IMG/VR virus record: IMGVR_UViG_3300012663_000495
Coordinates: 1 to 27,551 of that record
Reading direction: 5' to 3' (one strand)
Source of the DNA: a virus
Lineage: Duplodnaviria > Caudoviricetes
Length of the DNA: 27,551 nucleotides
Position 1 is the first letter of the stretch, and the number at the start of each line of letters is the position of its first letter. Both the position numbers and the translations under genes were made by a program. The notes beneath the pieces are model-generated. The model was not told the DNA's origin. It ran no database searches and saw only the letters and a list, made by a program, of their open reading frames with translations. Below are positions 1 to 27,551 of this stretch, in pieces.

Positions 1-1
1 T

Positions 2-292
2 GGTGGTAACTTGGCCGCTGGAACTTATGCTCCAGATGCAACAACTGCCACAGTTCACAAGTATACCTTAACTGGTAACGTGACTATCAATGCGTTGACT
101 AATCCTGTAACCGGAACTAACGTAACATTGATATTAACACAGGACGGAACTGGATCAAGAACATTAACCAGCACTATGAAATATGCCAATGGATTTAAGA
201 CATTGTCAACATCGACCAGTGCAATTGATCTAGTTACTATATTCTATGATGGGTCACAATACTTGGCTAGTTTAACTAGAGGATTTGTCTAA
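2..292 (+). CDS. C-terminal fragment of a tail fibre/virion protein (5' partial)
   Basis: Frame is open from position 2. Thr/Gly-rich beta domain (LILTQDGTGSRTLT...IDLVTIFYDG..YLA) of the kind that ends phage fibre proteins. Its stop overlaps the next start (TAATG). Confidence 0.7.
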   Translation, partial: GGNLAAGTYAPDATTATVHKYTLTGNVTINALTNPVTGTNVTLILTQDGTGSRTLTSTMKYANGFKTLSTSTSAIDLVTIFYDGSQYLASLTRGFV

Positions 293-1797
293 TGCCAGCA
301 TTTAGTAATAAACTTGGATTAACCAGAGGGGGCCTGAGACCGTGGACCCCCAATGACTTAACTGTTAAACCATATCTATGGTATGATGCCAGTAGTGCTA
401 CTACCATTACCTTAAGTGGTTCTACTGTTACAGCAGTTAGCAATTTAGGAACAGCAAGTGCTACATTGACTGGAACTGGTGCCATTACCAATAGTGTAAC
501 ACAAAATGGTCTTAAAACATTTGGTATTGATAATACCAGCGTAACACAACGATTGGTAAACACATCAATAAGTTTGACTGGCACGACCAGCACTACTTTT
601 TCTGCTCACCTTAATAATCCTAGTGCAACTGGACGTATTATATACGGTCGTATTTTTAGTTTTGTTGCCGCTGGTGTCAATGATTATGCGGCTGATTCGG
701 GATTTGGTTTCTTATATTTCCCTACTTGGAATTTATATTATTATAGAAACAATGCAGGTATAGGTCCATCTATTACCGGTTTAACTAACACTTGGTTAGT
801 AGCAGGCACACGCCGAAATGGCACCGCTGTTATTACACAGGTCAATGGTGGAACTAGGACTACAGGCAGCACAGCCGCAGGTGCTTATAATGCAACACAA
901 GTTCGTATTGGTAATGATGCCAATGCGGCAGACTCTGGTATGCGTGGTAACATAGGTGAAAATATACATTTTAACTATGCCCTAAGTGATGATGACTTTG
1001 ATCGCGTTACAGGATATCTTGCGTGGAAGTGGGGTCTACAGGGTAGTTTGGCTGCAACACATCCTTATAAGAATGGTGCTCCATACAATGAAACTCCTGC
1101 TGATTTAACAGTCAATATTGCATCAACTGGTTCAGTCAATGTATTCTTATTAGATGCTAACAGTGACAGCACATTTAGTGATTTGGGTGGTAACACATTA
1201 GCCATTACTAAGTTTGGAACTGTTAATTACAGCACTACAATTCCATTTGCTAGCAGTTCATTGAATAGTGCAAACTTTGGCACAGGTTCAGGTTACTTGA
1301 AACCAGCAGTAAATTCAGTATTTGCATTTGGCACAGGTAACTGGACAGTTGAATGCTTTATCTATGTAACAGCCCGACCAACTAGTAGTGGTCTAACTCC
1401 GATATTTGACAGTGAAGCCAATGCCAACGGTGGCCGTCCTGACAGTATTATCATATATCTAACTGCTACTGGTATCCTACATGCTTATCAAAACGGTGCG
1501 GCACAATTGACCAGTGGAGCAAACGTAGTAGCATTGAATACTTGGACACACGTGGCAGTTGCACGTAATGGTTCAACAACCACAGCATATTTTAATGGAA
1601 CCAGTGTTGGTAGCACTACCTACTCTTGGTCTAGCATGGCTGGTAACAATGGTAACCTAGGTATTGTCAACAACGTAGGTTCAGCATCAAGCCAATATGG
1701 TATTAGTGGACTAATGAGTAATGTAAGAGTAACCAAAGGCACAGCAGTCTATACTGCTAACTTTACTGCTCCATCATCAGATCTATCAGCAAGTTAA
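292..1797 (+). CDS. Virion adhesin with two concanavalin A/LamG-like domains
   Basis: First domain WYDAS...GNIGE...YLAWKWG; second domain FGTGNWTVECFIY...NTWTHVAVARNG...YFNG...SNVRVTKGTAVYTANF. Both match LamG-like lectin folds common in aquatic phages. Confidence 0.8.
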   Translation: MPAFSNKLGLTRGGLRPWTPNDLTVKPYLWYDASSATTITLSGSTVTAVSNLGTASATLTGTGAITNSVTQNGLKTFGIDNTSVTQRLVNTSISLTGTTSTTFSAHLNNPSATGRIIYGRIFSFVAAGVNDYAADSGFGFLYFPTWNLYYYRNNAGIGPSITGLTNTWLVAGTRRNGTAVITQVNGGTRTTGSTAAGAYNATQVRIGNDANAADSGMRGNIGENIHFNYALSDDDFDRVTGYLAWKWGLQGSLAATHPYKNGAPYNETPADLTVNIASTGSVNVFLLDANSDSTFSDLGGNTLAITKFGTVNYSTTIPFASSSLNSANFGTGSGYLKPAVNSVFAFGTGNWTVECFIYVTARPTSSGLTPIFDSEANANGGRPDSIIIYLTATGILHAYQNGAAQLTSGANVVALNTWTHVAVARNGSTTTAYFNGTSVGSTTYSWSSMAGNNGNLGIVNNVGSASSQYGISGLMSNVRVTKGTAVYTANFTAPSSDLSAS

Positions 1798-1806
1798 GGA
1801 AATATT

Positions 1807-2165: not shown

Positions 2166-2389
2166 CCGAAACTACAGAATTAGAACGAACAAGCCTAGAA
2201 GCACACGTAGACCTATGTGCTTTAAGATATGGTCAATTAGAAGAAAGATTAGGCAAAGTTGAGACGAAATTAGACCTATTATCCGCCGAGATCATTAAAA
2301 TGAGACAGGATTTTTTCAAGATCATGATCGGTAGTAGTGCTAGTGTTATCGTGGCAATAATCGGGGCCGTTGCAACCATTTATCATTAA
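2162..2389 (+). CDS. Coiled-coil plus C-terminal transmembrane protein, XhlA/holin-like
   Basis: LEAHVDLCALRY...LGKVETKLD coiled coil followed by a hydrophobic helix (IMIGSSASVIVAIIGAVATI); sits at the end of the structural operon. Confidence 0.55.
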   Translation: MTETTELERTSLEAHVDLCALRYGQLEERLGKVETKLDLLSAEIIKMRQDFFKIMIGSSASVIVAIIGAVATIYH

Positions 2390-2406
2390 TCGCGGTTTGT
2401 CCATTC

Positions 2407-2414
2407 TATAAGTA
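2407..2414 (+). promoter_or_regulatory. T4-late-like promoter variant TATAAGTA, probable leaderless start
   Basis: Intergenic; ATG 4 nt downstream (2419) with no SD. Confidence 0.5.
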
Positions 2415-2418
2415 AAAG

Positions 2419-2697
2419 ATGGACAAACAAGCATTACAAGAATTCTTAGATCTACATGGCGAACTTCGAGCACGTGGTGTTTGGGCTAAGAATCTTAAAA
2501 GAGAAATCAATCACAATGAAGAAACATTGAGATGGACGCCTAAGCCCAAAGAAAAAGCCTGTGAGGATTGTGAACTCACAGTAAAAGATCGTATAATAGA
2601 ATATAAGTTGATCAACATTGGACAACCCAATCAACGCTATCAGAAGAAATGTTCGGAATGTAAGCAATATTTGGGTCGTTCTAAGTCAATAGACTAA
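2419..2697 (+). CDS. Zn-ribbon hypothetical protein
   Basis: Two CxxC pairs (CEDC, CSEC). Confidence 0.7.
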   Translation: MDKQALQEFLDLHGELRARGVWAKNLKREINHNEETLRWTPKPKEKACEDCELTVKDRIIEYKLINIGQPNQRYQKKCSECKQYLGRSKSID

Positions 2698-2700
2698 ATA
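2693..2700 (+). promoter_or_regulatory. TAAATA-type promoter (ACTAAATA) for the putative sRNA
   Basis: Overlaps the upstream stop; the RNA closing stem starts 5 nt later. Confidence 0.55.
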
Positions 2701-2705
2701 TTTTT

Positions 2706-2861
2706 GTGAGTGGGCGTATCAAACTCCTTTAAGGCTGTCAATTCTTAATGGAATTCCTTGTTTTATAATTGCCATTTATATTCTCAAAAACCCCACTCAT
2801 ATCTTTCAATTTAGTTCAAACTTGAAGACGGAAAACCCTAGTGCAATACTAGGGTTTTTTT
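2706..2861 (+). ncRNA. Putative structured small regulatory (antisense) RNA
   Basis: GTGAGTGGG (2706-2714) pairs with CCCACTCAT (2792-2800). A second hairpin follows at ~2802-2828, then a terminator. The loop is complementary to 2919-2945. Confidence 0.55.
2832..2861 (+). terminator. Intrinsic terminator, possibly bidirectional
   Basis: AAAACCCTAGT-gcaat-ACTAGGGTTTT stem ending in a T7 run. Confidence 0.85.
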
Positions 2862-2898
2862 ATGGCTAAAATTCCGATATTATAGACCTGATATTTTG

Positions 2899-2912
2899 TG
2901 TTATACTAAATA
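2899..2912 (+). promoter_or_regulatory. Overlapping extended -10 (TGtTATACT) and ACTAAATA box
   Basis: Lies between the terminator and gene 2951; hairpin TGAAT-ggca-ATTCA begins at 2917. Confidence 0.55.
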
Positions 2913-2950
2913 ACATTGAATGGCAATTCACATAAAATTAAGGAAATATA

Positions 2951-3703
2951 ATGCAAAATTCACAAAAAAATCTTACAATTGGTGTAGGTTATAATAATAC
3001 AGATAACAAAGATAATAAAGAAAATAAAGATAAAGCATGTCGAACTAATAATGCTTTTTCTCTTTCTTCGTCTGGCAAAGAGGCTTACGCCTCTTTCTTC
3101 CCGGAAGAACCAATATGCGGGGAGACCCCATCTCGGGCGGAGCCGGACTTGCCTCAGTGTAATTCACAACCTACACCAATTCTAAATGAAGACCTGGTCA
3201 AAAGAGCAGTAATTCAACTTTTTGATAATGGTGAAACCAGTAGTCAACGTTATAAACTAAAACTTAAATTCAATCTGCTAGATGGGGAAAATCCGGAGTT
3301 TGTTGCAAGTCTAACCAAAGACATGCGTAATTTTATGAAGTATATTCCCGAGGATGGTAAAGATGATGTTGTTCATTTTGCCAAACAAATTACTGCAAAT
3401 ATTAAACATCAATTTAACAGCAAACCTTATATTGGTAAGTTCCATTTGAATCAAGGTAAAGGTAGACATATTCATAGTCAAACTGAACCTTATACTGCTG
3501 TAGCAGTTTGGTGGGATCCAGAACATAAAGCATGGGCAGGAGTTATAATGTTTTATGATTGGATGCATCAATTTGATCTATTCAGCGAATATATAACAGA
3601 TGCACAAGCCAAAAATGGTCTTAAAGGTCAAAGTCTTTTTATTAATCCTAAACATGATACAAGAGTAAGACCAAAGACCTGGGCAGAACAAAGGGGATTT
3701 TAA
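2951..3703 (+). CDS. Hypothetical 250-aa protein, possible replication-associated protein
   Basis: AAGGAA RBS. The N-terminal NKDNKENKDK linker is encoded by 9-nt repeats and followed by a hairpin cluster. It is the largest non-structural gene; function is inference only. Confidence 0.6.
   Translation: MQNSQKNLTIGVGYNNTDNKDNKENKDKACRTNNAFSLSSSGKEAYASFFPEEPICGETPSRAEPDLPQCNSQPTPILNEDLVKRAVIQLFDNGETSSQRYKLKLKFNLLDGENPEFVASLTKDMRNFMKYIPEDGKDDVVHFAKQITANIKHQFNSKPYIGKFHLNQGKGRHIHSQTEPYTAVAVWWDPEHKAWAGVIMFYDWMHQFDLFSEYITDAQAKNGLKGQSLFINPKHDTRVRPKTWAEQRGF
3001..3036. repeat. Four imperfect 9-nt tandem repeats
   Basis: AGATAACAA AGATAATAA AGAAAATAA AGATAAAGC. Confidence 0.7.
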
Positions 3704-3972
3704 TGGCTAAAATGAATTACAATCGACCTAACAATGGTTATGAAGTTTTAACTGGAGGTAATGGCGGTTCATTAAAAACTGGCAAAAATCTCAATAAACA
3801 ATTTGATCAATGTGACATATTAAAAAGTCGACATGATGATCATCCCAGTAAATTAATCATCAAAGATAATAAACCCTTTTTATATTGCGTTCAGTGTCGA
3901 GAAAATATTGTGCAATTATCTTGGCATATCTATAGAGATGTTAAAAAAGCCCTAGAATCGGGATCAGTATAA
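3703..3972 (+). CDS. Hypothetical Zn-binding protein
   Basis: HDDH...CVQC; TAATG coupling to the previous gene. Confidence 0.65.
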   Translation: MAKMNYNRPNNGYEVLTGGNGGSLKTGKNLNKQFDQCDILKSRHDDHPSKLIIKDNKPFLYCVQCRENIVQLSWHIYRDVKKALESGSV

Positions 3973-3975
3973 ATA
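3968..3975 (+). promoter_or_regulatory. TATAAATA, exact T4 late promoter consensus
   Basis: At a gene junction, followed by AAGGAG RBS and ATG 3994. Confidence 0.65.
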
Positions 3976-3993
3976 ATACAGAAGGAGTAATAT

Positions 3994-4413
3994 ATGGCAC
4001 ATCCATTATTCAACAAGTGGCGTAACATACGACAGGTATGTTTCAATCCCAACAGCCCGGGTTATACTAAAGACAACTATTGCTATTGGGGTGATAGCAA
4101 GAGTTTCTATAGGTATGTAGAAAATAACCTAGGCTTACCACCTACATCCACTGCTAAACTAGTTCGTAAGGACATTAATAAAGGTTGGCAACCAGGTAAT
4201 TTAACCTATATGGAACCTAAAGATCACAGCAATTACATGCCAGGTAATTGTGTATGGATGACCTATAAGCGTAAGACACAGAGTCTTAGACGTTGGTCAG
4301 AAGCCACAGGTATTCCTTATGTGACCATTTGGAATAGATATCACTTAGGTTGGCCACCTAAGTTTGTTCTAAGTCAAGAACGTTATGGTTATGGTAGGAT
4401 GCCCGCTCTATGA
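3994..4413 (+). CDS. HNH-endonuclease-like protein with C-terminal DNA-binding-like segment, probably degenerate
   Basis: W..I...C.NPN...Y; LVRKDINKGWQPGNL resembles the IDRIDNxxGYxPxN motif; C-terminal TQSLRRWSEATGIPYVTI..R...GW. Confidence 0.65.
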   Translation: MAHPLFNKWRNIRQVCFNPNSPGYTKDNYCYWGDSKSFYRYVENNLGLPPTSTAKLVRKDINKGWQPGNLTYMEPKDHSNYMPGNCVWMTYKRKTQSLRRWSEATGIPYVTIWNRYHLGWPPKFVLSQERYGYGRMPAL

Positions 4414-4727
4414 CTAGGCCTTACAAACCTAGGGGATTCAAGTATCCCGATCCAATCGAACATGAACAACACATTGCCTGGCTACGTGCCCGGGCACAGG
4501 AACACTATCTTGGTCGTGAATGGAATATCACCATAGAAGAATATATGGAGATATGGGGTCGTGATCTGTGGCTACGTCGTGGTCGCAAAAGCAATGATCT
4601 AAGTCTAGCACGAATTGATTGGAACAAGCCTTGGAGCAAGGACAATGTGCAGATCATCACACGCTATGAACAGGTGCAGATCAGCAATCAAAAACATTAT
4701 AATATAAGACATGGAAAATCCCTTTAA
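4410..4727 (+). CDS. HNH-endonuclease-like protein, probably degenerate
   Basis: EWNITIEEY..IW...SLARIDWNKPWSKDNVQIIT..EQ; ATGA overlap with the previous gene. Confidence 0.6.
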   Translation: MTRPYKPRGFKYPDPIEHEQHIAWLRARAQEHYLGREWNITIEEYMEIWGRDLWLRRGRKSNDLSLARIDWNKPWSKDNVQIITRYEQVQISNQKHYNIRHGKSL

Positions 4728-4956
4728 CGATTTTGACCCATATGACATGTTGCAAGAACTAGCACGTCAAAATGCTGAACTGGCAGAGCAGTTTCAAATG
4801 ATGGTCAAAAATCAACACGCACTTGCCGCCGCACTGAATGATCAACACAGCCAAATAGAACAGCAGACAAGAAAAATACAACAGATGCAACTGATGATAT
4901 TCAACTACCTTAGAGGAACACCAAATGAAAAAGAAAACAGCCGCCCTACTAGATAA
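4711..4956 (+). CDS. Gln-rich coiled-coil hypothetical protein
   Basis: Heptad pattern; overlaps both neighbours. Confidence 0.65.
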   Translation: MENPFNDFDPYDMLQELARQNAELAEQFQMMVKNQHALAAALNDQHSQIEQQTRKIQQMQLMIFNYLRGTPNEKENSRPTR

Positions 4957-5146
4957 CACCCAAAAGAAACTCTATCACATAGAAATAGAATGCACCACTG
5001 GCAAGAAAGCCAGCATGATATTTCAAGATAAAGAAATGAGTGTTATGACCTACAATACCATAAAGAACGCAGGCATATTCTGCGGACAGTGGGTCAAAGA
5101 TATTACAGTTTGGGAATCAGATGACACTACATTCCTTGCCACATAA
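4925..5146 (+). CDS. Hypothetical protein
   Basis: GAGGA RBS upstream; tight packing. Confidence 0.6.
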   Translation: MKKKTAALLDNTQKKLYHIEIECTTGKKASMIFQDKEMSVMTYNTIKNAGIFCGQWVKDITVWESDDTTFLAT

Positions 5147-5363
5147 TGGTTGGCACTTCTGTGCTGATCATCATAGAATAGGTGCAGGTGTCAGCATGGA
5201 TGATTTTAAGAATAATCCAGATGCACAATGGGATATGAACATGTGTGGCTTTTGGGTGCGTCCAGAAAGTAAATTATTTGTTTGGCTAGCACTCAAAGGA
5301 GTTGAAATGGGTCAGGTGTGGCATAAAACACACACTGGACCAGACTGGCGTGATCATGATTGA
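5121..5363 (+). CDS. Hypothetical protein, paralogue of 6097..6348
   Basis: Shares NGWxF, KNNPDxQ and WVRPES motifs with 6097..6348. Confidence 0.7.
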   Translation: MTLHSLPHNGWHFCADHHRIGAGVSMDDFKNNPDAQWDMNMCGFWVRPESKLFVWLALKGVEMGQVWHKTHTGPDWRDHD

Positions 5364-5388
5364 CACGGCCTAGACTTTTCTATATACT
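5360..5388 (+). promoter_or_regulatory. Near-consensus sigma70 promoter
   Basis: TTGACA (5360-5365), 17-bp spacer, TATACT (5383-5388); leader hairpin GCAGAT/ATCTGC at 5402-5423. Confidence 0.8.
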
Positions 5389-5445
5389 AATAACATGCTT
5401 TGCAGATAGTTGCTTAAATCTGCTTACTCAACCAAGGAGATAGAG

Positions 5446-5850
5446 ATGAAAGTGTTAAAGAACAAGACTATTACAGTCTACCCAAAATCAACTGGTGCCA
5501 ATACCCAGTATTATGATATGGAATCAGCAGACGAAGCCTATGTATACAATTGGCTCTACAGACTGCAAAGTGACATGGGTGAACTATGCACCTATGATCC
5601 AGAACTGCAACGTGATTGGTTCAAACGCCGTCCTGGACAATTCCCCAAAGGCAAACAAGGCCCTAACAGTTACGCAAGTATGTTGGGTGGTATTTGCTCT
5701 GCCAAAATACAAAATGCCAACAAGAATCTCAGTGAAGCACAGTTGGATGCAGTAGAACACCTGTTTACCATTATTGCAGACTACTATTCAGGTGAAGAAA
5801 CGCCACCCGAATCAATCCGCTTTACTAAAAAACTTTTCTCAGAGGTATAA
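5446..5850 (+). CDS. Hypothetical early protein, 134 aa (start re-assigned from 5410)
   Basis: AAGGAG RBS before ATG 5446; first gene after the sigma70 promoter. Confidence 0.7.
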   Translation: MKVLKNKTITVYPKSTGANTQYYDMESADEAYVYNWLYRLQSDMGELCTYDPELQRDWFKRRPGQFPKGKQGPNSYASMLGGICSAKIQNANKNLSEAQLDAVEHLFTIIADYYSGEETPPESIRFTKKLFSEV

Positions 5851-5851
5851 T

Positions 5852-6100
5852 ATGTTTTTAACACGAGAACAAACTGATTTGTTGACCGCAGAACAATGTG
5901 AACAACACCTAAAGAAGATCAGTAAAACCTATAATCTAGACAAACCATTAACAGAACAATGGCAACTAGTTTGGCCCGATCTTGATGAAATAGTCAATAC
6001 AATACTTTACTTGGAAGATCAACTAAAATATCTACAACAAAGTGAAACAATGACCAGAGTAAATCTAGCACGTTGGGCAGATAAGAAAGAATTAGAATGA
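5852..6100 (+). CDS. Hypothetical helical protein, 82 aa (start re-assigned from 5774)
   Basis: GAGGT RBS; ATG 1 nt after the previous stop. Confidence 0.7.
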   Translation: MFLTREQTDLLTAEQCEQHLKKISKTYNLDKPLTEQWQLVWPDLDEIVNTILYLEDQLKYLQQSETMTRVNLARWADKKELE

Positions 6101-6348
6101 CCCAGCATACAGAACCCAATGGATGGAAGTTTGTTCACAAAACATTCTTTCAAACACGTCCGGATCTATTGGCACAAATGAAAAACAATCCAGATGTGCA
6201 ATATTCAGTAGAACATCATGTCTATTGGGTGCGTCCAGAATCAGCAACACATACCTTGTTGATATTGGCCAATGCATTTCCCACTATACCCCCTTACACG
6301 GGTGGTGGACCAAGTGTATTAGGTATTCCTAGAAATCAATTACGTTAA
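6097..6348 (+). CDS. Hypothetical protein, paralogue of 5121..5363
   Basis: Shared motifs; ATGA overlap with the previous gene. Confidence 0.7.
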   Translation: MTQHTEPNGWKFVHKTFFQTRPDLLAQMKNNPDVQYSVEHHVYWVRPESATHTLLILANAFPTIPPYTGGGPSVLGIPRNQLR

Positions 6349-6357
6349 GGTTCTAAC

Positions 6358-6645
6358 ATGAAATTAATTATTAGTCTATTAGCCGTAGTCGTATTGTCAG
6401 GTTGTGCCGCAGGATGTCCTAGTGGATTTTGCCCCGGACAGCCAGCATTTGAACTAGTGGCCAACTATTATGATCGTCGTGATCCATGCCAAGGTGACTA
6501 TAGATCATCAACAGCAGAACGCCGAGCAGAATTGGGACGAGCAGACAACTATACACGCCCTGATTGGTGCTTTGCATCCCGTGGTAAAAATATCCGAATT
6601 GATAGGAATGCCAGCCCTAACTCCTATACAATTACTAAATACTAA
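6358..6645 (+). CDS. Lipoprotein, possible superinfection exclusion factor
   Basis: MK + hydrophobic stretch + lipobox LSGC; four further Cys. The exclusion role is inference. Confidence 0.7.
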   Translation: MKLIISLLAVVVLSGCAAGCPSGFCPGQPAFELVANYYDRRDPCQGDYRSSTAERRAELGRADNYTRPDWCFASRGKNIRIDRNASPNSYTITKY

Positions 6646-6672
6646 TAACAATAAAAAAGTTTCGTTCATATT

Positions 6673-6699
6673 AGGCCCCTTTATCCGGGGCCTTTTTTT
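6673..6699 (+). terminator. Intrinsic terminator
   Basis: AGGCCCC-tttatcc-GGGGCCT followed by a T run. Confidence 0.85.
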
Positions 6700-6705
6700 A
6701 TGGTC

Positions 6706-6713
6706 TATAAATA
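6706..6713 (+). promoter_or_regulatory. TATAAATA late promoter for the packaging operon (leaderless terS)
   Basis: Directly after the terminator; in-frame ATG 5 nt downstream with no SD. Confidence 0.7.
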
Positions 6714-6718: not shown

Positions 6719-7174
6719 ATGGACCAATCCAATAGTATTCCCACCTCCGATGAACAGCCTGAATATGATCTAGTGCCACTGCCACCTGAGGAACCCGTTA
6801 ATCCCAGCAAGACTGGTAACAAACCTAAACGACTCAAAGCCGTTGAAGCATATGGATATGAAATAGGTCGAGGCTTACGCAAGAAGGTTGTAACCCCAGA
6901 AGACGTATATAAATTGGCTGCAATTGGCTGCAATAACAATGAAATAGCACGTTGGTTTGACATTGATGAAAACACACTGACCTACAACTTTAGCGATATC
7001 CTAGCAAAGGGTCGCGAGGATGTTAAGATGGCTCTTAGACAGGCCCAACTTAAACTAGCACTGGGTGGCAATGCTGTCATGCAGATATGGCTGGGTAAGA
7101 ACCTATTAGGACAAAGTGATAACCCTGTAGGCAGTGAAGCCAATGCTCCATTACCTTGGTCAGACGACGAATAA
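6719..7174 (+). CDS. terS: Terminase small subunit (start re-assigned from 6470)
   Basis: HTH (LAAIGCNNNEIARWFDIDENTL) and GNAVMQIWLGKNLLGQ motif; immediately upstream of terL. Confidence 0.8.
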   Translation: MDQSNSIPTSDEQPEYDLVPLPPEEPVNPSKTGNKPKRLKAVEAYGYEIGRGLRKKVVTPEDVYKLAAIGCNNNEIARWFDIDENTLTYNFSDILAKGREDVKMALRQAQLKLALGGNAVMQIWLGKNLLGQSDNPVGSEANAPLPWSDDE

Positions 7175-8409: not shown

Positions 8410-8423
8410 AGGACAATAAACAA

Positions 8424-16712: not shown

Positions 16713-16713
16713 T

Positions 16714-18421: not shown

Positions 18422-21400
18422 TAGCGGCCTACTTTTTTACAGCAGGCACAGTGGCCTATTATGCAACAGTATTGGCTGTGCGTCTTGTAACCACTTTAGT
18501 AATTTCTAGCATTATTGCCAAACGTATGGGTGATCCAGGTGATCCAGGCGTAAGTGGTGCAAGCCTAGGCAATCGTGTGCAACTACCACCAGCCACTGAT
18601 AACAAAATTGGTGTTGTCTATGGTAGTGCTTATATGAAACCCATCATCACTGATGTTAAGATATCCACTGATCAAAAGACCATGTGGTATGTCACAGTAT
18701 TCAGTGAAGCCATGGACACGGACGCTATCGGAACATTTAGTTTCGGTGATATCTATTGGGGTGACAAACTATTGACCTTTGATGGCACTGATCTTACCAA
18801 GGTAGTAGGATGGACTGACAGCAGTGGACAAAATGATACCAAAGCCTCTGGCAAATTAAACTTCTATCTATATCGTGATGGCAGTGAGAAACCAATTAAC
18901 ACAGATCTAAAGGCTTGGCAAGTCCTACAAGATTCAGGTATTGCTGAAGCCAATCGTTGGGATACCAGCAAAAAAATGACAGGTTTAGTGTTTGCCATTG
19001 TTAAATTAAGTTATGATCAGGATGCAGGCATTACAGGTCTTGCTGATATTTCTGCAGTGATTACCAATTCATTGACCAAGCCAGGATCAGTGATCAAAGA
19101 CTATCTAATGAACACACGTTATGGTGCAGGACTTGCCATTGAGCGTGTCAATACTGCAAGTCTAACAGCCTTAGATACCTATAGTGATGAAACAATTTCT
19201 TACACTAACATTAACAATACAACCAGCACAGCACCACGTTATCGTATAAATGGTCCTATTGATACCACAAAGAACTTTCTTGATAATCTAAATCAATTGG
19301 CAGACTGCTGTGACAGTTGGTTAAGTTTCAATGAGAAAGAAAACAATTGGGCTATTGTTATCAATCGTAGTGTCTATGATCTAGATCCAACTGGTGCGGC
19401 CATTCCTATTATTGACGCTACCAATATCATGGGTGGCATTAATATAACTCCGATGGATTTGAATCAAAGTTATTCCAGCGTAGAAGTGCAATTCCCTAAC
19501 ACACGTCAACGTGATCAACCAGGTTACTATAGACTTGATATTGAAAGTTTTCCTAATATTGTTCGTTCAGCCAATGAACCAGATAACAGCCTAAGCATTG
19601 CATTGCCATTCACTAATAACATTGTTGAAGCACAATACATTGCTGGACGTAGATTATTACAAAGTCGTGAAGACCTAAGTGTAACATTCACTATGGACCA
19701 CAGTGGTATCCAAATTGATGCTGGTGATGTTATTGCCATTACACATGAACGTTATGATTGGGAAAACAAGTTCTTCCGTGTTAATCAAGTTCAAGAAGGC
19801 AAGAATGAAGATGGAAATCTTTATGCACAGATCACAGCCAGTGAATATAATGATGGCGTTTATGATGACGATAATATAGATCTACAAGATTTTACATTGG
19901 ATCTAAACACAGGCATTACTGATCCTAATTATTTGGCCAGTCCATATGCCCCATACATTACTAATCAATCGCCAAATGCGGCTGTTCCTAGTTTTGATGT
20001 AAACAATGTGGTGCCAGCAGGCGGCACAGTGGTTGCTGTGGAATATTGGTATGCTACCACTGCCACTATCAATCTAAACAATTATACCCTATATCAAACT
20101 GCATTACCTAGTAGCAGTAGCATATGGGCCGCCAACACCACAGCCACTATCACTGTTAGTGGACTTGGCCTAGGTGATTATTATTTTAGAACACGCTTGG
20201 TTGGTCTAAGACGCAAGAGTGAATATTCATCACCAACTGATGTGATCAATTGGTTACCAAACCCTATTGGAACCTTAGTTGGACAAAACTTCCAAAGTGA
20301 ATTTGTTCCCAACACCCTAACTGTGCGTAGAGATACTACCGGCACAGTTTATTATTCTTCAGCAGTGGCTAGACTCTATGGTCAAAGTGGCGGTGCATTG
20401 ATCAACTATTCTGGAGCAACCAGTGACGTTGATGCCCGCTTTGTCAATAACTCATGGCGTATTGGTGCAACAACCAGCACATGGTTACAGGGTATTACTA
20501 CCGATGGTCTAACAATAACCTTATCTACCAGCACGGTGGTAGATGCTGGAGTCAATGCACAATTTAATTCACCTAGTTTTGTCAACACTGTCACAGGTGG
20601 CACAATGGTTGTGCCTGTTCGTTATAAGAATTCATTAGGACAGGTTTATCAAGGTATTCCTGCATCACAAAAGTATCAAGTGTTAAGTGATGGTATCAAT
20701 GGAACTAATGGATTTAATGGATCTGCTGGCACCGGAACAAATGGATTAAATGGCTTTGTAAACTTTGCCTATATACCAATTGGTGTTGAACCAGAAAGTG
20801 CTAACAATGCACAAAAGACTGCGGCTTGGATCAGTGCTGTAAATCGTGAACCTGTGTATAATGACAACGGAACATTCTGGGGTCCTACCACACATAAGAA
20901 TTACAGTTATTATGGAACTAGCACACAATGGACTTCGGCAACAGTATTCATCGATGGTGACCTAGTATCAACCGGAACTATCCGTGGTGCGGCCCTAGTT
21001 GCTGATGCTATCTATGGTAAGACATTCCAAAGTAATAATGGTTATGTGGGCAGTTACGGCAGTCCAGGAACTTGGATTGATGGCAATAATGGTAATGCAC
21101 GTTTTGCCGGCACAATGAACATTGGCAATAATTTAACCATTGGCAATAGTGCTACAATTGGTAACAGTTTAACCATTGGAACATCGGCATTTATTGGATC
21201 AAGTTTAACCATAGGTGATGATTTACGTGTAGGTAACAATGCCACAATTGGTAGTGATGTTTATATTGGCAATAACTTAACTGTTGCTGGTCTAATCACC
21301 AATGGTGCATTGGGCATAGGTGTTGTTACCAGTTCAACATTGGCCACCGATGTTCGTGCATTGATTTCAGCAGGCACTGGTGGAACTACGGGCACACAAT

Positions 21401-21933
21401 TAGGCACACCACATATAGCCGCTAGCAATAGTTGGAATAGCACACAATATGATTGGCATTGGACCAGTGGATTCAGTGTAGGATTCTGGAGAACAATAGG
21501 TTACAGTGATGGACTAGATGCACAAGCGGGCTCTGGTAGCATTACTGTAAGTTATAGTTGTAGCAACCTAAGTATTACTGGTGCACCAGCCTATCCTAAT
21601 GGTCCACAGTTCTATTTGTTTATGAATTATACACCACAGATGGGATCTACACCACAACTTGTCTTTATTCCTGCAGGCGGAAGTCCATTACCTTCAGGTG
21701 CCACATCAGGAACAGGCAGTAGTGTTTACCCTCAATTTGGCGATTATCCTTGCGGCACCAGTGGCGGCACCAGTCATACTGGACCATACAGTCTAAGTGC
21801 AACATTCAATATACCAAGTAGCAAGACTAATGTTGTCATAGGTGTAGGTTTCTTCAATGGTAACAGCAATGTAAATTCTAATACAGGTTCGTTCTCAGTA
21901 ACAGGCAATACCTGGTCACTAACAAGGACATAA
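18406..21933 (+). CDS. Central tail fibre / tip attachment protein (gpJ-like)
   Basis: GGAGGA RBS before ATG 18406; IGVVYG, DYLMNTRYGAG, GDVIAIT, FN3-like YYFRTR; ~1175 aa. Confidence 0.85.
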   Translation: MPATMIAAYFFTAGTVAYYATVLAVRLVTTLVISSIIAKRMGDPGDPGVSGASLGNRVQLPPATDNKIGVVYGSAYMKPIITDVKISTDQKTMWYVTVFSEAMDTDAIGTFSFGDIYWGDKLLTFDGTDLTKVVGWTDSSGQNDTKASGKLNFYLYRDGSEKPINTDLKAWQVLQDSGIAEANRWDTSKKMTGLVFAIVKLSYDQDAGITGLADISAVITNSLTKPGSVIKDYLMNTRYGAGLAIERVNTASLTALDTYSDETISYTNINNTTSTAPRYRINGPIDTTKNFLDNLNQLADCCDSWLSFNEKENNWAIVINRSVYDLDPTGAAIPIIDATNIMGGINITPMDLNQSYSSVEVQFPNTRQRDQPGYYRLDIESFPNIVRSANEPDNSLSIALPFTNNIVEAQYIAGRRLLQSREDLSVTFTMDHSGIQIDAGDVIAITHERYDWENKFFRVNQVQEGKNEDGNLYAQITASEYNDGVYDDDNIDLQDFTLDLNTGITDPNYLASPYAPYITNQSPNAAVPSFDVNNVVPAGGTVVAVEYWYATTATINLNNYTLYQTALPSSSSIWAANTTATITVSGLGLGDYYFRTRLVGLRRKSEYSSPTDVINWLPNPIGTLVGQNFQSEFVPNTLTVRRDTTGTVYYSSAVARLYGQSGGALINYSGATSDVDARFVNNSWRIGATTSTWLQGITTDGLTITLSTSTVVDAGVNAQFNSPSFVNTVTGGTMVVPVRYKNSLGQVYQGIPASQKYQVLSDGINGTNGFNGSAGTGTNGLNGFVNFAYIPIGVEPESANNAQKTAAWISAVNREPVYNDNGTFWGPTTHKNYSYYGTSTQWTSATVFIDGDLVSTGTIRGAALVADAIYGKTFQSNNGYVGSYGSPGTWIDGNNGNARFAGTMNIGNNLTIGNSATIGNSLTIGTSAFIGSSLTIGDDLRVGNNATIGSDVYIGNNLTVAGLITNGALGIGVVTSSTLATDVRALISAGTGGTTGTQLGTPHIAASNSWNSTQYDWHWTSGFSVGFWRTIGYSDGLDAQAGSGSITVSYSCSNLSITGAPAYPNGPQFYLFMNYTPQMGSTPQLVFIPAGGSPLPSGATSGTGSSVYPQFGDYPCGTSGGTSHTGPYSLSATFNIPSSKTNVVIGVGFFNGNSNVNSNTGSFSVTGNTWSLTRT

Positions 21934-21936
21934 CAA

Positions 21937-22149
21937 ATGGCTATTAACAATGATAATATTACAATAAATGAATATGTTGAAGGGTTTCAACAACTACCTG
22001 AATTGGCAAGACTCAATGCCTATAAGCCAGGAGAGCAATTAAATGCTCTCTATGATGACATACAAGCAGGACTATTTGGTGAAGCCGCAAAGACAGGCAA
22101 GTTCTGTTCTTACGTTGAGAGCGTAAAAGCGGCATATCCCAAGGCATAA
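21937..22149 (+). CDS. Small tail-associated hypothetical protein
   Basis: EQLNALYDDI...VKAAYPK; follows the fibre gene. Confidence 0.65.
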   Translation: MAINNDNITINEYVEGFQQLPELARLNAYKPGEQLNALYDDIQAGLFGEAAKTGKFCSYVESVKAAYPKA

Positions 22150-22160
22150 AGTCAACCTGA

Positions 22161-22207
22161 GTTAAATATACTTGATGTGTAGGGCCTCAGCATTGCACAC
22201 GTTCATC
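22161..22207 (+). promoter_or_regulatory. GTTAAATA promoter plus structured 5' leader
   Basis: Intergenic; stem GATGTGT/ACACGTT starts 5 nt after the motif. Confidence 0.5.
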
Positions 22208-22224
22208 CCTTAGGAGTTATAGAT

Positions 22225-22725
22225 ATGGCTGGCGTATTAGATTTCTCATCGTGGCTTGGTGGCCCTGATGAAGTTAAAGTAGAATCAACATTCCCAAGTA
22301 GTGCAAAGACTTTAGTTTATAACTTCGGTCAAAACATTACCAACTGGACTTTCAAACTAGATTGTCAAACGGTTATTGCAGATCCAATTGCATTTGATCG
22401 CAACACTGGACAACCTAACTTTGCCAACAGTCAAGTTATCGGATTTACTCCCTATACCTTATTGAGCACCGCTACACATATTACTGTGGTCAGCACTGCC
22501 TCTGGTATCGTGAATGTTACTCATCCAGCAAGTATGTATAATGGTCCAATCCTTCCTGATGCTCGTGCTAAAGTGCCCTTAACAGTAGTAAGTTTTACTT
22601 GGGCAGATGGTGCGACTCCTCCGCAGGTCAATACTCACCGTATCGTGAAGTTAATGGCTTGGGAGCCACAGGTTCCTACGGGCGATCCAACCACTGCTAC
22701 CAATTATACTGCAATTTCAGCATAA
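22225..22725 (+). CDS. Virion structural protein, possible fibre attachment
   Basis: AGGAG RBS; beta-rich; precedes the fibre genes. Confidence 0.6.
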   Translation: MAGVLDFSSWLGGPDEVKVESTFPSSAKTLVYNFGQNITNWTFKLDCQTVIADPIAFDRNTGQPNFANSQVIGFTPYTLLSTATHITVVSTASGIVNVTHPASMYNGPILPDARAKVPLTVVSFTWADGATPPQVNTHRIVKLMAWEPQVPTGDPTTATNYTAISA

Positions 22726-22734
22726 TGAGTAACC

Positions 22735-25700
22735 GTGGCCTATACATTTACAGTAACTGAAGTTACCCCTACTATTGGTTTGACCGTCAGTCCGGCGGCC
22801 AACTTCACTGTGACCAATGCAGTGAACAGTCTCACCATTGCTGAAACAAATCCGCAGTTTACAGTAACCGATGTTCCAGACAATGCCATTACCATCAATG
22901 ATGATGGTTATGTATTCACACTGACCAATGTTGATAGTTTAGTTACACTGACTAACAGTCCTGCATTTGTAGTCACTGCTACCAATAGTGTTCAAAGTAT
23001 TGCGGTTACACAGAACACAAACAATTTCAACTTCAGTGCTACCAACATTACCTTTACAGCCACTACGGCTATCGGTCAAATACAGACTGAGAATATGGCT
23101 ACCATATTCAAAGGTGAGTTTACCAGCACAGCAGGAATAATTTACTATCGCGGACACATTGTTCGCCACAATCAAAATATCTATGTGGCCAATGTTGAGC
23201 CTAGTGAGAGAGTTACAAACCCTGCCGCACCTCCTGGCAATGATCAATGGCGATTGATATTCAGCCAAACTGGTCTACAAGGTTGGCAAGTTACTGCCAT
23301 GGAAAAGGCCTACAATCAAGGTCCTTGGAATGCAGGTGCAACCTATGCTCCTTATACTTGGGTTGAGCATCAAGGTTATATCTGGGAACTAGAAAATCAA
23401 AGTGGTTCCTATAATAGCGAACCTACTCGTAACAATCCTTATTGGAAGCAAATTGGTAGTCAAGGTGATCAAGCCTTATTCACTACCAGTTCAGTAACAT
23501 TCCAAAACTTAACAGTCACAGATAGATTTGTTGCCAGCCGTGGTGTTGTCACTAACTTTACTGTGACCAATAGACTGCAAGCAGGTGCAATCAAGTATCC
23601 ATTAGGTGCTGGTCTATATGGACAAGTATTAACCACTAACGGTGTTAATGAAGCCAACTGGGTTGATGCCAGTGCTGTTACCACTGCCACAATACGTCCT
23701 GCCACTAGAGAAAACCTAGGTGGTGTTATTATTGGCACTGGTCTAAATGTAACGGCTGGTGGTGTTATCAGTATTACCACTGGCACCAATGGAGCCAACA
23801 TTGGTTGGAACCTAACTGATGATCTAACCACAAATGGATTTGGTATCTACACAGGTGCACCAGATCCAATTAACATAAACTTTCCTGTTCCAAGATTAGA
23901 AATTGGTTCAGGTGAACGTAATGCTGTTGATGCAAGTCTATTATTTGAATCAAGGACTAGTTCAACCAGTGTTGTAAAACTTGTTGGTGATACAGTTCGT
24001 ATTGGATCAGGCAATCCTACATTCAATACAATCAATTATGAAGTGCGTGTCAGCACCAGCGGCACAAACATAATTGGTCCTACTACATTCTCAGGCGGAG
24101 AAGTTAGAATCAATCCTGCCAATGCTCATGTGTATCTTGGCAGCACCAGCACATCATTTGGCACAGCAACTAGTCGCATTTATGTTGGTGCACCTATCTA
24201 TGGTGAATTTAGACCATATTCAGGTAGTTACATAGACATTCAAAGTAAAACATATTTTACTGAAGGCGTCTATGGTGCAGCCAGTATATTACCAGTTAAG
24301 ACTCCAGCCGGTATACAATTTAATGATGGCACCATTCAACGAACTGCCGCATATTCACAAACTTTTGTATTAACCACTGCTACCAGCACTAGTTTAGGTG
24401 GTATTAAAGTTGGTAGTGGATTGGCTATTAATTCAACCACTGGCGTATTGAGTGTTACTGCTGTTCCAACAGATTATACATTGCCTACCGCTGACACCAA
24501 TGTTAAAGGTGGTGTTAGATTAGGCACAAGTTTTTATATTGGTGAAACACCCGGCATTGGTGTTTATGAAACATTATATCTAAGAACTGCAACATCATCA
24601 AGACTTGGTGGTATCTATGTAACAGAACCATTCTTTACTCAAGAAGGTCAGGGCGGTGTTTTAGATATTCGATATGCCACAACATCAACCAAAGGTGTTG
24701 TTAAAGTAGGTTTTGGTCTTGCTATTGATGCTGAAGATAGATTATATGTCAATACCAACACTGGCACCAATGCTGTCTATGCTGATGGTCTACATGGTAT
24801 TGAACTAGTTGGCAGTGAAGTTAGATTAAAAACAGCCACTAATACCACTATCGGTGGTGTTAGGATTAGCAGTAATCAAATATATGGTCTTGTATTAAAC
24901 GGGGATGAATTAAGAGTAAGACCTGCTACCTATAACGAAATAGGCGGTGTTAAAGTAGGCAATGGATTTAGTGTTGACGGTGTGGGAACACTAAATCTTG
25001 CACCAGCCAGCACCTCAACATTTGGTGGTGTTAGATTAGGTTATGGACTTGCACTAGATGAAAACGGATTAACCTATGTTACCATCTCAGGTAGCACTGG
25101 CACAACCAGCACCTACACATTGCCTATTGCTTCAACCAGCACACTAGGCGGAGTTAAGATTGGTCGAAACATTACCATTGATGCTGATGGCACAATCAAT
25201 GCGGCAACCACTGCTAGCGGAACTACTGGACAATTTAATTTAGATAGAGAAAGTTATACCAATGGTTATAGAATTTCCTATAATAATACAGCCACTGGTT
25301 ATTTTACAAATCTAACATTAACTGCTAATACAGCCACAATGACTGCTGAACGTGGCTATGTTAATCTATCCAGTCCAGAAGTTAAGATAGGCACATCATA
25401 CTATGGTGGTGATGGGGCAGATAGATATCTAAGTATTAATTCATCTGGTTCTACATTATATAGTAATCAATACAATTATCTAACTGTTGGCACGGGTGCA
25501 GTTAGCATTGCCAGTAGTATTATAGGACTTGCCACTACAAATAATAGTGCAAGTTTAAGATTAAGTGATAACGGAAGTTTAATTGCCAAGTCAAGCGTAA
25601 ATGGATTCAAGTTTGAACTTACTGACAGTTTAGCCCGGATGTATGTTACAACTTCCACTGGATCCGCTAAATTAGTATTACAGGCGGGTGAAAGCACGTT

Positions 25701-25992
25701 AGAAGCAGATGATACATTGACATTGTCTGCTCCGGTTATCACTAAGATGACCAGTCCGTTTATACAAATGGGTAATCTATATAACAGTAGACTATTTGTA
25801 GGAACAATACAAAACTTTTCAGGAACAGGTCCTCCACTATTAGCCGATGGTGTTCAATATGGTGACTTGTCAGTGCAAAGAACAGCATATCCTGGATATG
25901 ATTACGGTCAAATTATAAGAGGTGCGGCCTACGGTCCAAATGTGCCTTTGGATTTTAATAATACAAGTCTCGGCGTAGACTTTAACAGATAA
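22735..25992 (+). CDS. Long tail fibre with CBM-like modules and A(T/S/D)xxxxG(G/V) repeats
   Basis: Two Trp/Tyr CBM5/12-like units (e.g. WNAGATY...WVEHQG...EP.....WKQIG); nine ATxxxLGGIKVG-type repeats; GTG start. Confidence 0.8.
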   Translation: MAYTFTVTEVTPTIGLTVSPAANFTVTNAVNSLTIAETNPQFTVTDVPDNAITINDDGYVFTLTNVDSLVTLTNSPAFVVTATNSVQSIAVTQNTNNFNFSATNITFTATTAIGQIQTENMATIFKGEFTSTAGIIYYRGHIVRHNQNIYVANVEPSERVTNPAAPPGNDQWRLIFSQTGLQGWQVTAMEKAYNQGPWNAGATYAPYTWVEHQGYIWELENQSGSYNSEPTRNNPYWKQIGSQGDQALFTTSSVTFQNLTVTDRFVASRGVVTNFTVTNRLQAGAIKYPLGAGLYGQVLTTNGVNEANWVDASAVTTATIRPATRENLGGVIIGTGLNVTAGGVISITTGTNGANIGWNLTDDLTTNGFGIYTGAPDPININFPVPRLEIGSGERNAVDASLLFESRTSSTSVVKLVGDTVRIGSGNPTFNTINYEVRVSTSGTNIIGPTTFSGGEVRINPANAHVYLGSTSTSFGTATSRIYVGAPIYGEFRPYSGSYIDIQSKTYFTEGVYGAASILPVKTPAGIQFNDGTIQRTAAYSQTFVLTTATSTSLGGIKVGSGLAINSTTGVLSVTAVPTDYTLPTADTNVKGGVRLGTSFYIGETPGIGVYETLYLRTATSSRLGGIYVTEPFFTQEGQGGVLDIRYATTSTKGVVKVGFGLAIDAEDRLYVNTNTGTNAVYADGLHGIELVGSEVRLKTATNTTIGGVRISSNQIYGLVLNGDELRVRPATYNEIGGVKVGNGFSVDGVGTLNLAPASTSTFGGVRLGYGLALDENGLTYVTISGSTGTTSTYTLPIASTSTLGGVKIGRNITIDADGTINAATTASGTTGQFNLDRESYTNGYRISYNNTATGYFTNLTLTANTATMTAERGYVNLSSPEVKIGTSYYGGDGADRYLSINSSGSTLYSNQYNYLTVGTGAVSIASSIIGLATTNNSASLRLSDNGSLIAKSSVNGFKFELTDSLARMYVTTSTGSAKLVLQAGESTLEADDTLTLSAPVITKMTSPFIQMGNLYNSRLFVGTIQNFSGTGPPLLADGVQYGDLSVQRTAYPGYDYGQIIRGAAYGPNVPLDFNNTSLGVDFNR

Positions 25993-26004
25993 GGAATAAA
26001 GATT

Positions 26005-27551
26005 ATGGCGTTACAATTTAGACGAGGCCCAACTGGTGATTTAGAGCAAATTACACCTCTTGAAGGCGAACCATTATGGAACACAGATACCGATGCACTC
26101 TATGTAGGCGATGGTTCCACACCTGGTGGTATTTTAGTTGCTGGTGCAGGTAGCGGTTATTCTGGATCAACAGGATTTGCTGGCAGTCGAGGTTTTACTG
26201 GATCGGCAGGATTCAATGGTTCAATTGGATTTAGTGGTAGCCTAGGTTACACTGGATCATTTGGTTTCACTGGATCAAAAGGCGACACTGGCTTTGTCGG
26301 TAGCACTGGCTTTGTTGGATCACAAGGTAACTTAGGCTACACTGGCAGTAAAGGTGACACTGGAGAATTTGGTGCATTGGGCTATACTGGCTCAAAAGGT
26401 GATACTGGTTTTATTGGCAGTAAAGGTGACATTGGATTCACTGGCAGCAAAGGCGATACTGGTTTTATTGGGTCACAAGGAATTCAAGGTTACACTGGAT
26501 CTGATGGTAGCGTTGGCTACAGAGGTAGTCAAGGTTTTACTGGATCACAGGGTATACAAGGTAATATTGGATTTACTGGTAGCAAGGGCGAACAAGGATA
26601 TAATGGATCACAAGGTATCCAGGGCTACTTTGGTAGTAAGGGCGATACTGGCTATGTTGGATCACAAGGCATTCAAGGCTATGATGGTAGTAAAGGTAAT
26701 ATTGGTTACACTGGTTCACTTGGTAATCCAGGTGCCGATGGCGATCGTTATCATACCACAAGTGTTAGCAGCCTAACAATTACAAACAATGGTCAATTGA
26801 CCTTATACACAGTTGACCTAAACTTAGATTATAGTGTTCAACAAACATTGTTAATTGCATATAATTCTAACAATCACATGCATGCCACTGTTGACACATA
26901 CAATCCTGCAACTGGACAATTGGTTGTTACTGTTAACAGCAAATCCGGTAGTGGCACATACTCAAATTGGGAAGTTAACCTAGATGGTGCTGTTGGTATA
27001 CAAGGTTATACTGGTAGCAAGGGTGACACTGGATTTATTGGATCACAAGGCATCCAAGGCGATATCGGATTTACTGGCAGCAAAGGCGACATTGGCTTTG
27101 TAGGCAGTAAAGGTGACATTGGATTCACTGGTAGCAAGGGTGATATTGGTTATGTAGGATCACGTGGTGACCAAGGCTTTACTGGAAGTAAAGGAGATCA
27201 AGGTTACATAGGTAGTCAGGGTGATATTGGCTTCTCTGGTTCAAAAGGTGATATTGGTTACACTGGTAGTGGTTATGTAGGTAGTCAAGGTGTTGTTGGT
27301 GATCAAGGATTTACTGGCAGTAAGGGCGACATTGGATTTACTGGAAGTAAGGGCGATATCGGTTACACTGGTAGTGGCTTCATTGGCAGTCAAGGCGATA
27401 TTGGTTATGCCGGTAGTAAAGGCGATCAAGGATTCACAGGTAGCCAAGGATTTACTGGTTCAAAAGGCGACGCTGGCTTTGTAGGTAGTCAAGGTGATCT
27501 AGGTTACATTGGTAGCCGAGGCAGTATTGGTTTTACTGGATCACAAGGAGA
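26005..27551 (+). CDS. Collagen-like fibre protein (3' partial; not in track)
   Basis: AAGGAA RBS. MALQFRRG...GEP...DT..LYVGDG N-terminal domain (Mtd-N/hyaluronidase-like), then long Gly-X-Y tracts split by a ~80-aa globular insert. Open to the window end. Confidence 0.9.
   Translation, partial: MALQFRRGPTGDLEQITPLEGEPLWNTDTDALYVGDGSTPGGILVAGAGSGYSGSTGFAGSRGFTGSAGFNGSIGFSGSLGYTGSFGFTGSKGDTGFVGSTGFVGSQGNLGYTGSKGDTGEFGALGYTGSKGDTGFIGSKGDIGFTGSKGDTGFIGSQGIQGYTGSDGSVGYRGSQGFTGSQGIQGNIGFTGSKGEQGYNGSQGIQGYFGSKGDTGYVGSQGIQGYDGSKGNIGYTGSLGNPGADGDRYHTTSVSSLTITNNGQLTLYTVDLNLDYSVQQTLLIAYNSNNHMHATVDTYNPATGQLVVTVNSKSGSGTYSNWEVNLDGAVGIQGYTGSKGDTGFIGSQGIQGDIGFTGSKGDIGFVGSKGDIGFTGSKGDIGYVGSRGDQGFTGSKGDQGYIGSQGDIGFSGSKGDIGYTGSGYVGSQGVVGDQGFTGSKGDIGFTGSKGDIGYTGSGFIGSQGDIGYAGSKGDQGFTGSQGFTGSKGDAGFVGSQGDLGYIGSRGSIGFTGSQG

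Follow-up and report, generated by a model that had tools for sequence, protein, structure and literature searches.

The window analyzed here, a DNA stretch of 27,551 nt that makes up the IMG/VR virus record IMGVR_UViG_3300012663_000495 (Duplodnaviria; Caudoviricetes), is a near-complete siphophage genome in which every long open reading frame (ORF) lies on one strand. Judging from its gene content and promoters, it represents a small tailed phage that has the genes for a complete virion of its own and probably depends on a co-infecting T4-like jumbo phage. The direct observations are the gene content itself, the placement and geometry of promoters with the hexamer TAAATA, a clade of jumbo phages that possess a matching sigma factor and motif, and one gene shared with this clade. 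A preliminary description of the same DNA had proposed a satellite of this kind, and the proposal gains support from circular relatives that are without the same functions and from sigma-bearing jumbo phages that have the hexamer, its geometry, and one gene in common with the window.

Virion genes and functions without a match

The virion genes of the window were matched via PHROGs and Pfam to small and large terminase subunits (terS and terL), portal, scaffold, HK97-type major capsid, neck, and tape measure proteins, as well as to distal tail, tail, hub-like, and fibre proteins; the adaptor, terminator, tube, and chaperones were named from gene position alone. The head, tail, and packaging set, described earlier as complete, is confirmed by these matches, with some tail and head parts assigned by position, and the non-structural block is indeed flanked by structural genes, occupying 4.2 kb (2419-6645) between the fibre genes and terS. 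Apart from two HNH-like genes and a lipoprotein gene, the small ORFs that make up this block have no matches. Two traits of phage-inducible chromosomal islands (PICIs), capsid-forming PICIs (cf-PICIs), P4, and PICI-like elements (PLEs) were compared. The taking of helper tails or capsids does not apply to the window, which has its own head, tape measure, distal tail, hub-like, and fibre genes, and no integrase was detected in the window or in 14 relatives.

Searches of 40 window ORFs against PHROGs and Pfam gave no match to a polymerase, helicase, primase, SSB, initiator, integrase, endolysin, or sigma factor, and a re-scan of 29 window ORFs, six of them on the minus strand, again left the same functions unmatched. 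The window and its relatives G001 and G007 gave no match in a six-frame search for the gp55 family, which was positive in both jumbo phages searched. Among the non-structural ORFs of relatives, no initiator, replisome gene, integrase, endolysin, or sigma factor was found in eight genomes (150 of 153 ORFs scanned) or, with PHROGs only, in six further genomes (114 of 120), and the scans were equally negative for these replication, sigma, and lysis genes in the four relatives closed by direct terminal repeats (DTRs), namely G001, G007, G018, and G019. What the non-structural ORFs of relatives do encode includes HNH and endonuclease VII proteins, methyl- and glycosyltransferases, and an AAA ATPase. 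The same PHROG library recovered a DnaD-like initiator and an endolysin in all three control genomes (HTVC111P, HTVC026P, and G025). Thus, the earlier claim that no replisome, integrase, endolysin, or sigma gene is recognizable held in the window and in the scans of 14 relatives. A search of 10 small records for phrog_12791, a family matched by the late sigma factor of the candidate helper, gave no match and ran without a positive control.

The major capsid protein has 456 relatives in IMG/VR. Of 20 records fetched, 18 are members of a family of 27-31 kb genomes, and G024 and G025, which were fetched via the RNA pattern described below, are not. The four DTR-closed genomes measure 26,994-31,034 bp, and three more relatives show terminal redundancy. 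The relatives keep the gene order and a short, variable non-structural block, and in the capsid tree the HTVC111P type stands next to the clade of 15 rows that includes the window. One record, G003 (36,627 bp), contains two different versions of the tail module and is probably a chimeric or over-extended assembly.

The window contig is linear, with a CheckV completeness of 92%. Its first ORF (2-292, open at the 5' end) encodes the C-terminal end of a tail fibre (PHROG match) and likely belongs to the same gene as the last ORF (26005-27549); it matches residues 449-542 of the 542-aa fibre of G007 at 52% and residues 1460-1544 of the 1544-aa fibre of G001 at 56%. As the two ends of the contig thus fall in one fibre type, the assembly gap likely lies inside a single collagen-repeat tail-fibre gene. 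No contig from four sequencing runs bridges the left part of the window, and the genome stayed unclosed. The DNA words of the window were found in freshwater and lake metagenomes, with half or more of them in one run, and no RNA dataset was present among the listed sets that match its DNA.

TAAATA promoters and the candidate helper clade

The hexamer TAAATA occurs at 10 sites in the window, all 10 on the coding strand, against 29 expected over both strands. Inside genes, two sites are seen on the plus strand versus 11.4 expected from codon-preserving shuffles, and none on the minus strand versus 15.8 expected, with a minimum of 7 in 200 codon shuffles; this intragenic avoidance on both strands is as expected for a signal that works alone. 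The box lies upstream of five of the seven genes that have an upstream gap of at least 70 nt, in agreement with the earlier statement that most operons carry it, and one of the two wide-gap genes without it instead has the best sigma70-type promoter of the window upstream. The identification of the signal as the T4 late octamer was not upheld: TATAAATA is not enriched in the window (two seen versus 2.44 expected), the signal is the hexamer, and the octamer is present at 24 of the 121 TAAATA sites of the small-phage family. Boxes occupy orthologous places in the relatives, before the terS, scaffold, chaperone, and fibre operons. The three control genomes show no strand bias of TAAATA (37/42, 36/45, and 34/36), their lower G+C raising the chance counts.

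Promoter geometry was judged from leaderless start codons. Of the 121 family sites, 20 have a start codon 5 nt past the box and 8 have one 4 nt past it, and at 25 of 202 sites in jumbo phages the distance is 4-5 nt. Neither set of sites shows a conserved -35 or other second element beside the hexamer.

The candidate helper clade is formed by jumbo phages of about 350 kb. One of them, G012, a T4-like jumbo phage of 330 kb (93% complete), encodes a late sigma factor matching phrog_12791 and phrog_234, as well as polB, primase, helicase, SSB, recombinase, and endolysins, as revealed by a scan of 150 of its 233 mid-sized ORFs. The satellite trait of lacking functions that the candidate helper encodes was therefore observed, at the level of profile searches, when the window and its relatives were compared with G012. 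In three jumbo genomes, a start follows TAAATA at a distance of no more than 70 nt in 86/345, 50/94, and 57/233 cases (24-53%), versus 4-12% for five control hexamers in the same genomes. The nearest cultured relatives of the jumbo sigma factor are those of Pseudomonas phage PA5oct and its kin (47%), followed by Atu_ph07, and TAAATA precedes 11 of the 21 PA5oct genes checked. The suggestion of a T4-like helper thus stands in so far as a T4-like jumbo clade uses the same hexamer, and requires amendment in that this clade resembles PA5oct and Atu_ph07 rather than T4 itself.

The gene shared with this clade (2162-2389) encodes a 75-aa protein with a coiled coil and a hydrophobic tail, possibly holin-like. 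Among its 80 best IMG/VR loci, 70 belong to the jumbo clade, with at least five jumbo-clade genes each, and 10 are loci of the small family; the corresponding tree, which has few columns and long branches, gives no direction of transfer. Fibre domains and a few other genes of the relatives also match these jumbo phages. Several single cases of similarity were recorded besides. The portal genes of G005 (2293-4053) and G006 (23646-25418) are about 90 aa longer than that of the window, and parts of them match a 141-aa gene of the jumbo phage G011 (29% and 50%, respectively), perhaps reflecting a mobile insertion shared with the helper clade. Three adjacent genes of G010 (20132-22843) match G011, one of them at 70% identity, possibly as a result of recent exchange, and an AAA-type protein of phrog_1250 is encoded in the non-structural blocks of G006, G008, and G019 and in G012 (221057-222055). 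Contigs with jumbo-like capsids occur in all four sequencing runs, including the run without the words of the window, which says nothing on co-occurrence. The Moraphages were also considered, and the available text of their description (PMC12619734) established no link to the candidate helper.

Predicted small RNA and gene organization

A predicted small RNA (2703-2865) sits between a TAAATA box (2695-2700) and a terminator hairpin; like all features described in this section, it is encoded on the plus strand. It comprises a long closing stem, a GGCTGTCA hairpin, an anti-start-codon loop (GCCATT), and the terminator hairpin, and its fold (z -4.19) was equaled by none of 200 shuffles; a search of Rfam gave no match. 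Counterparts are present in 13 of 19 genomes, their closing stems differing in sequence yet keeping the pairing. Across genomes the loop reads NANNGCCATT, the complement of the start context A-ATG-GC(A/G)-NTN, and it is often followed by an anti-Shine-Dalgarno stretch. A second conserved element, a hairpin loop with GGCTGTCA or CTGTCA (2731-2740 in the window), is found in 9 of the 13 RNA copies. The allusion in the preliminary description to an RNA like SviR of PLEs and to HNH-like genes is thus matched by a structured RNA and two HNH-like genes.

Pairing of the loop with start sites makes it plausible that the RNA interferes with helper translation, the proposed targets being candidates only. 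The loops of three genomes pair at all 10 positions with 19 of 26 distinct tail-sheath starts of jumbo phages, the loops of three others fit the start form found at eight sheath loci, and in six genomes the full 10/10 pairing is with a GroES-like jumbo gene instead of the sheath. For the loop of the window itself, 10/10 pairing is seen with one ORF of a jumbo phage, and 9/10 pairing with 8 of 19 tube starts. Longest-match and duplex rankings of the loops against the starts of three jumbo genomes revealed no consistent target, and an exact IMG/VR search with the 24-nt complement of the loop region of the window returned no match. A degenerate start-site pattern yielded at least 120 loci, eight of which are tail-sheath starts of jumbo phages and many others unrelated, and a promoter-plus-loop pattern yielded mostly unrelated loci, with 8 of the 120 listed matching family proteins. 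It is also possible that the RNA regulates genes of its own phage. No called gene of the 13 RNA-bearing genomes pairs 10/10 with its own loop, and in some members the gene next to the RNA pairs 9/10. An ORF of 24 codons (2920-2994) begins 7 nt past the TAAATA box at 2907, and in several relatives its place is taken by a longer gene that starts similarly. The second codon GCA is rarer in genomes with a U-type loop (30/83 versus 34/55), a hint of self-avoidance that was not counted as evidence because the genomes are related.

Clustering of 17 genomes revealed no universal non-structural family, the widest being the HNH-like (14/17) and zinc-finger (13/17) families. The CxxC...CxxC zinc-finger protein of the window (2419-2697) has no clear relative in PDB. 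A family-specific 250-aa protein (2951-3703; 8/17 genomes) has a beta-barrel-like model, which does not resemble a sigma or replisome fold and which gave no Foldseek match in PDB at E 0.001 (best Z 5.4). The HNH operon, preceded by a TAAATA box at 3970-3975, includes HNH-family protein 1 (3994-4413; phrog_3377, E 3.5e-15) and HNH-like protein 2 (4410-4727), the most conserved non-structural gene product. The model of the latter (pLDDT 88.8) has weak matches that include PacI and colicin HNH domains, and no significant match in PDB (PacI, TM 0.52, E 0.14). Of the fold searches recommended earlier for the whole block, those with the 250-aa, HNH-like, and zinc-finger proteins revealed no clear relative in PDB. 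Two paralogous ORFs of about 80 aa (5121-5363 and 6097-6348) are 37% identical and match no family. The lipoprotein (6358-6645) has a weak match to the Cor superinfection-exclusion family (phrog_1119, E 8e-4). As regards lysis, the earlier statement that the functions are lacking is supported by the absence of an endolysin match and was too strong in view of this lipoprotein and of gene 2162-2389, whose family in the relatives has weak holin/hemolysin (XhlA-like) and exonuclease PHROG matches.

Two promoters of the block are of host type. An extended -10 promoter (TGnTATACT) overlaps a TAAATA box at 2899-2912, an arrangement that recurs in G001, G005, G006, and G007, and the best sigma70-type promoter (TTGACA-17-TATACT, 5360-5388; 11/12 matches) precedes the operon 5446-6645, ranking top of 38 such sites, whose number is not above chance.

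The virion genes, with assignments from PHROGs and Pfam, include a LamG-domain virion or fibre protein (292-1797; PF13385) next to the first ORF and continue after the non-structural block. A terminator followed by a TAAATA box (6673-6713) precedes the leaderless terS gene, whose start codon lies 5 nt downstream, and terS, terL, and portal genes occupy 6719-9914. The box within terL (8223-8228) is kept in G001, G002, G003, G004, and G007, lies 176-195 nt before the portal gene, and is likely an internal promoter. A very basic 48-aa peptide (9995-10141; phrog_31267), possibly DNA-binding, is encoded between portal and scaffold. The segment 10175-12730 comprises a TAAATA box, scaffold, major capsid protein, and two head-completion genes, and the segment 12724-14272 comprises a box, the probable tail tube, a second box (13245), chaperone-like genes, and the neck protein, the tube and chaperones being assigned by position. 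Tape measure, distal tail, and tail proteins, a GNAT acetyltransferase, and a 1175-aa hub or tip protein follow (14274-22149); the acetyltransferase gene (17954-18421) has the same placement within the tail-tip module in HTVC111P and DSL-LC06. The last segment (22163-27549) contains a TAAATA box, a 166-aa gene, a 1085-aa fibre, and the collagen-repeat fibre, open at its 3' end.

Proposed life cycle, alternative readings, and known satellites

In the proposed life cycle, the phage would enter alone or together with its helper, and host RNA polymerase would express two small operons, including the possible exclusion lipoprotein. Once the late sigma factor of the helper is present, all operons for packaging, head, and tail would be turned on, together with the HNH operon and the small RNA. 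The genome would be copied by the polymerase, helicase, and clamp of the helper, perhaps, as a speculation, from a nick or R-loop in the region 2700-4700, and helper lysins would open the cell. The anti-start loop of the RNA would probably dampen translation of selected late genes of the helper, the tail sheath being the best candidate in some members. Because neither an integrase nor a plasmid Rep was detected, long idling in the cell is unlikely, and the phage more probably enters together with the helper, as MiniFlayer does, or waits only briefly.

Several points weigh against dependence on a jumbo phage. The absence of functions rests on profile searches, in which most small ORFs belong to no family, and the scans of the relatives, for lysin domains too, covered their non-structural ORFs. 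Gene 2162-2389 may be a holin and the lipoprotein may be spanin-like, and the HNH-like and zinc-finger proteins are conserved enough that they could be the phage's own activator or initiator. In the capsid tree, the genomes of TAAATA type do not form one clade: three of them lie outside the clade of the window, on long branches, so that a single origin is not evident. Two TAAATA-type genomes with the RNA, G017 and G023, have capsids only 25-27% like that of the window, suggesting capsid swapping or separate origins. As to the RNA, the loop of the window fully pairs with none of the 26 sheath or 19 tube starts, pairs 10/10 with the phage's own 24-aa ORF at 2920, and the duplex ranking left the sheath outside the top five. 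In addition, the main text of the PA5oct paper lists only TATAATA/TTGAC promoters and no TAAATA (PMC7318152), and the cultured kin of the HTVC111P type grow despite having no polymerase gene (bioRxiv 10.1101/2019.12.14.876532).

One alternative is an autonomous lytic phage, in which an HNH-like or zinc-finger protein would bring host RNA polymerase to TAAATA and start replication via the host replisome, the small membrane protein and the lipoprotein, or an unrecognized lysin, would accomplish lysis, and the shared motif and gene would reflect a shared host. We regard this as unlikely. The wide occurrence of the two protein families, the weak holin matches, and the lack of a polymerase in autonomous kin are consistent with it, as is the finding that none of the 80 best loci of the HNH-like gene is on a contig longer than 34.9 kb. 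However, neither gene is universal, and the HNH-like family is absent from the terminally redundant genomes G005 and G006. Moreover, the model of the HNH-like protein at best resembles HNH nucleases, at a level that is not significant, and not a sigma domain; the box occupies the -10 position with no second conserved element; the HNH operon itself stands behind a TAAATA box; and autonomous kin retain a recognizable initiator and lysin.

It is improbable that the phage is enhanced by a helper and not dependent on it, or that TAAATA is read by a host sigma factor (e.g., a stress sigma) that jumbo phages also use. The host-type promoters at 2899-2907 and 5360-5388 would suit such a phage, and among GTDB genomes the capsid gene was found only on two short contigs of metagenome-assembled genomes from different phyla. 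On the other hand, the motif tracks the phage sigma factor across hosts, as PA5oct, a phage of Pseudomonas aeruginosa, has TAAATA before virion operons, and we know of no bacterial sigma factor that reads TAAATA without a -35 element, although no search aimed at one was made. Finally, it is hardly credible that the genes for replication, sigma factor, and lysis lie in a stretch missing from an incomplete assembly, as the linear contig at 92% completeness with its unbridged left part might suggest, given that both ends lie in the same fibre-gene type and that the four DTR-closed relatives likewise are without these genes.

Dependence of the phage on a jumbo helper would draw on a promoter type known from T4 late transcription (gp55/gp33/gp45). 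According to the available texts, T4 late promoters have a single -10-like box, no -35 element, and a start about 5 nt downstream (PMC2988020, PMC7892883), the 8-bp box beginning at -13 (PMC2988020). In contrast to T4, the core in the window is TAAATA and not TATAAATA, and the matching sigma factor, a longer one of the PA5oct/Atu_ph07 type, has its gene in another phage.

The nearest GenBank relatives are the HTVC111P-type pelagiphages and DSL-LC06, with terminases at about 50%, similar size, and similar gene order; capsid identity to the window is 45-47% for the HTVC111P type and 37% for DSL-LC06. HTVC111P and HTVC026P are cultured and have a DnaD-like initiator, a lysin, and no TAAATA bias, whereas the window shows the bias and has no match to such an initiator or to an endolysin. 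DSL-LC06, an uncultured phage of the proposed family 'Nanhuiviridae', resembles the window family in that eight of its nine plus-strand boxes are intergenic, and it shares small genes with this family. The main text of its description treats it as an ordinary phage, without the words 'satellite' or 'promoter' (PMC10611076).

Satellites with their own capsid and without replicases are already known from two isolates, the Streptomyces satellites MiniFlayer and MulchRoom (PMC10690885). As far as the available text of that report goes, they are similar to the window in having their own terminase, portal, scaffold, and capsid genes and an HNH gene, in lacking a primase or replicase, and in having a large virulent helper with a G+C content near their own; for the window, this helper is a candidate only. 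They differ in size (15-17 kb, with terminal repeats of about 1 kb, versus 27-31 kb and a full long-tail module in the window family). MiniFlayer has short fibres and attaches to the virion of its helper, MulchRoom has long tails with no tail module named, and the text describes no sharing of helper late promoters (PMC10690885). A comparison of the window capsid with 50,697 phage records matched five records, neither MiniFlayer nor MulchRoom among them.

Virophages share promoters with their giant-virus partner and have a double jelly-roll virion (Maveriviricetes). The predicted similarity to the window family comprises an own virion, use of the expression and replication machinery of a giant partner, and gene exchange, as outlined in the accessible text of a recent review (PMC13359090); the differences are that virophages have eukaryotic hosts and an unrelated capsid, whereas the window encodes a tailed HK97-type bacterial phage. 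For Vibrio PLEs, the portions of the reports available (10.1101/2022.04.08.487710, PMC13595925) describe activation tied to the helper transcription programme, HNH-derived proteins, and the trans-acting small RNA SviR that lowers helper translation, an activity predicted for the RNA of the window. PLEs integrate and take helper virion parts, as the same texts relate, whereas the window is without a detected integrase and encodes its own virion. As large-phage satellites, the 2026 review names, in its accessible part, MiniFlayer and MulchRoom, PLEs, and one transduced island (PMC13359090). In the literature accessible to us, in which subscription coverage is incomplete, we found no description of a satellite with a full tail that relies on the late promoters of its helper.

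The known bacterial satellites mostly steal virion parts. With confidence just short of an even chance, we tentatively propose that the window family is the bacterial counterpart of virophages, having lost its initiator, lysin, and late regulator, with a virion programme run by the late sigma factor of a jumbo phage and an RNA with a loop that imitates the pairing partner of ribosome-binding sites and silences the tail sheath and similar late genes of this helper. The combination of a helper late box with the absence of a sigma factor would provide a sequence rule for finding such parasites, and the case bears on the open question, raised in the accessible text of the review, of whether large phages attract more hyperparasites (PMC13359090). 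If the proposal is true, many 'complete phage genomes' of aquatic viromes would be parasites of jumbo phages and would go unnoticed by any satellite finder based on integrases or missing tails.

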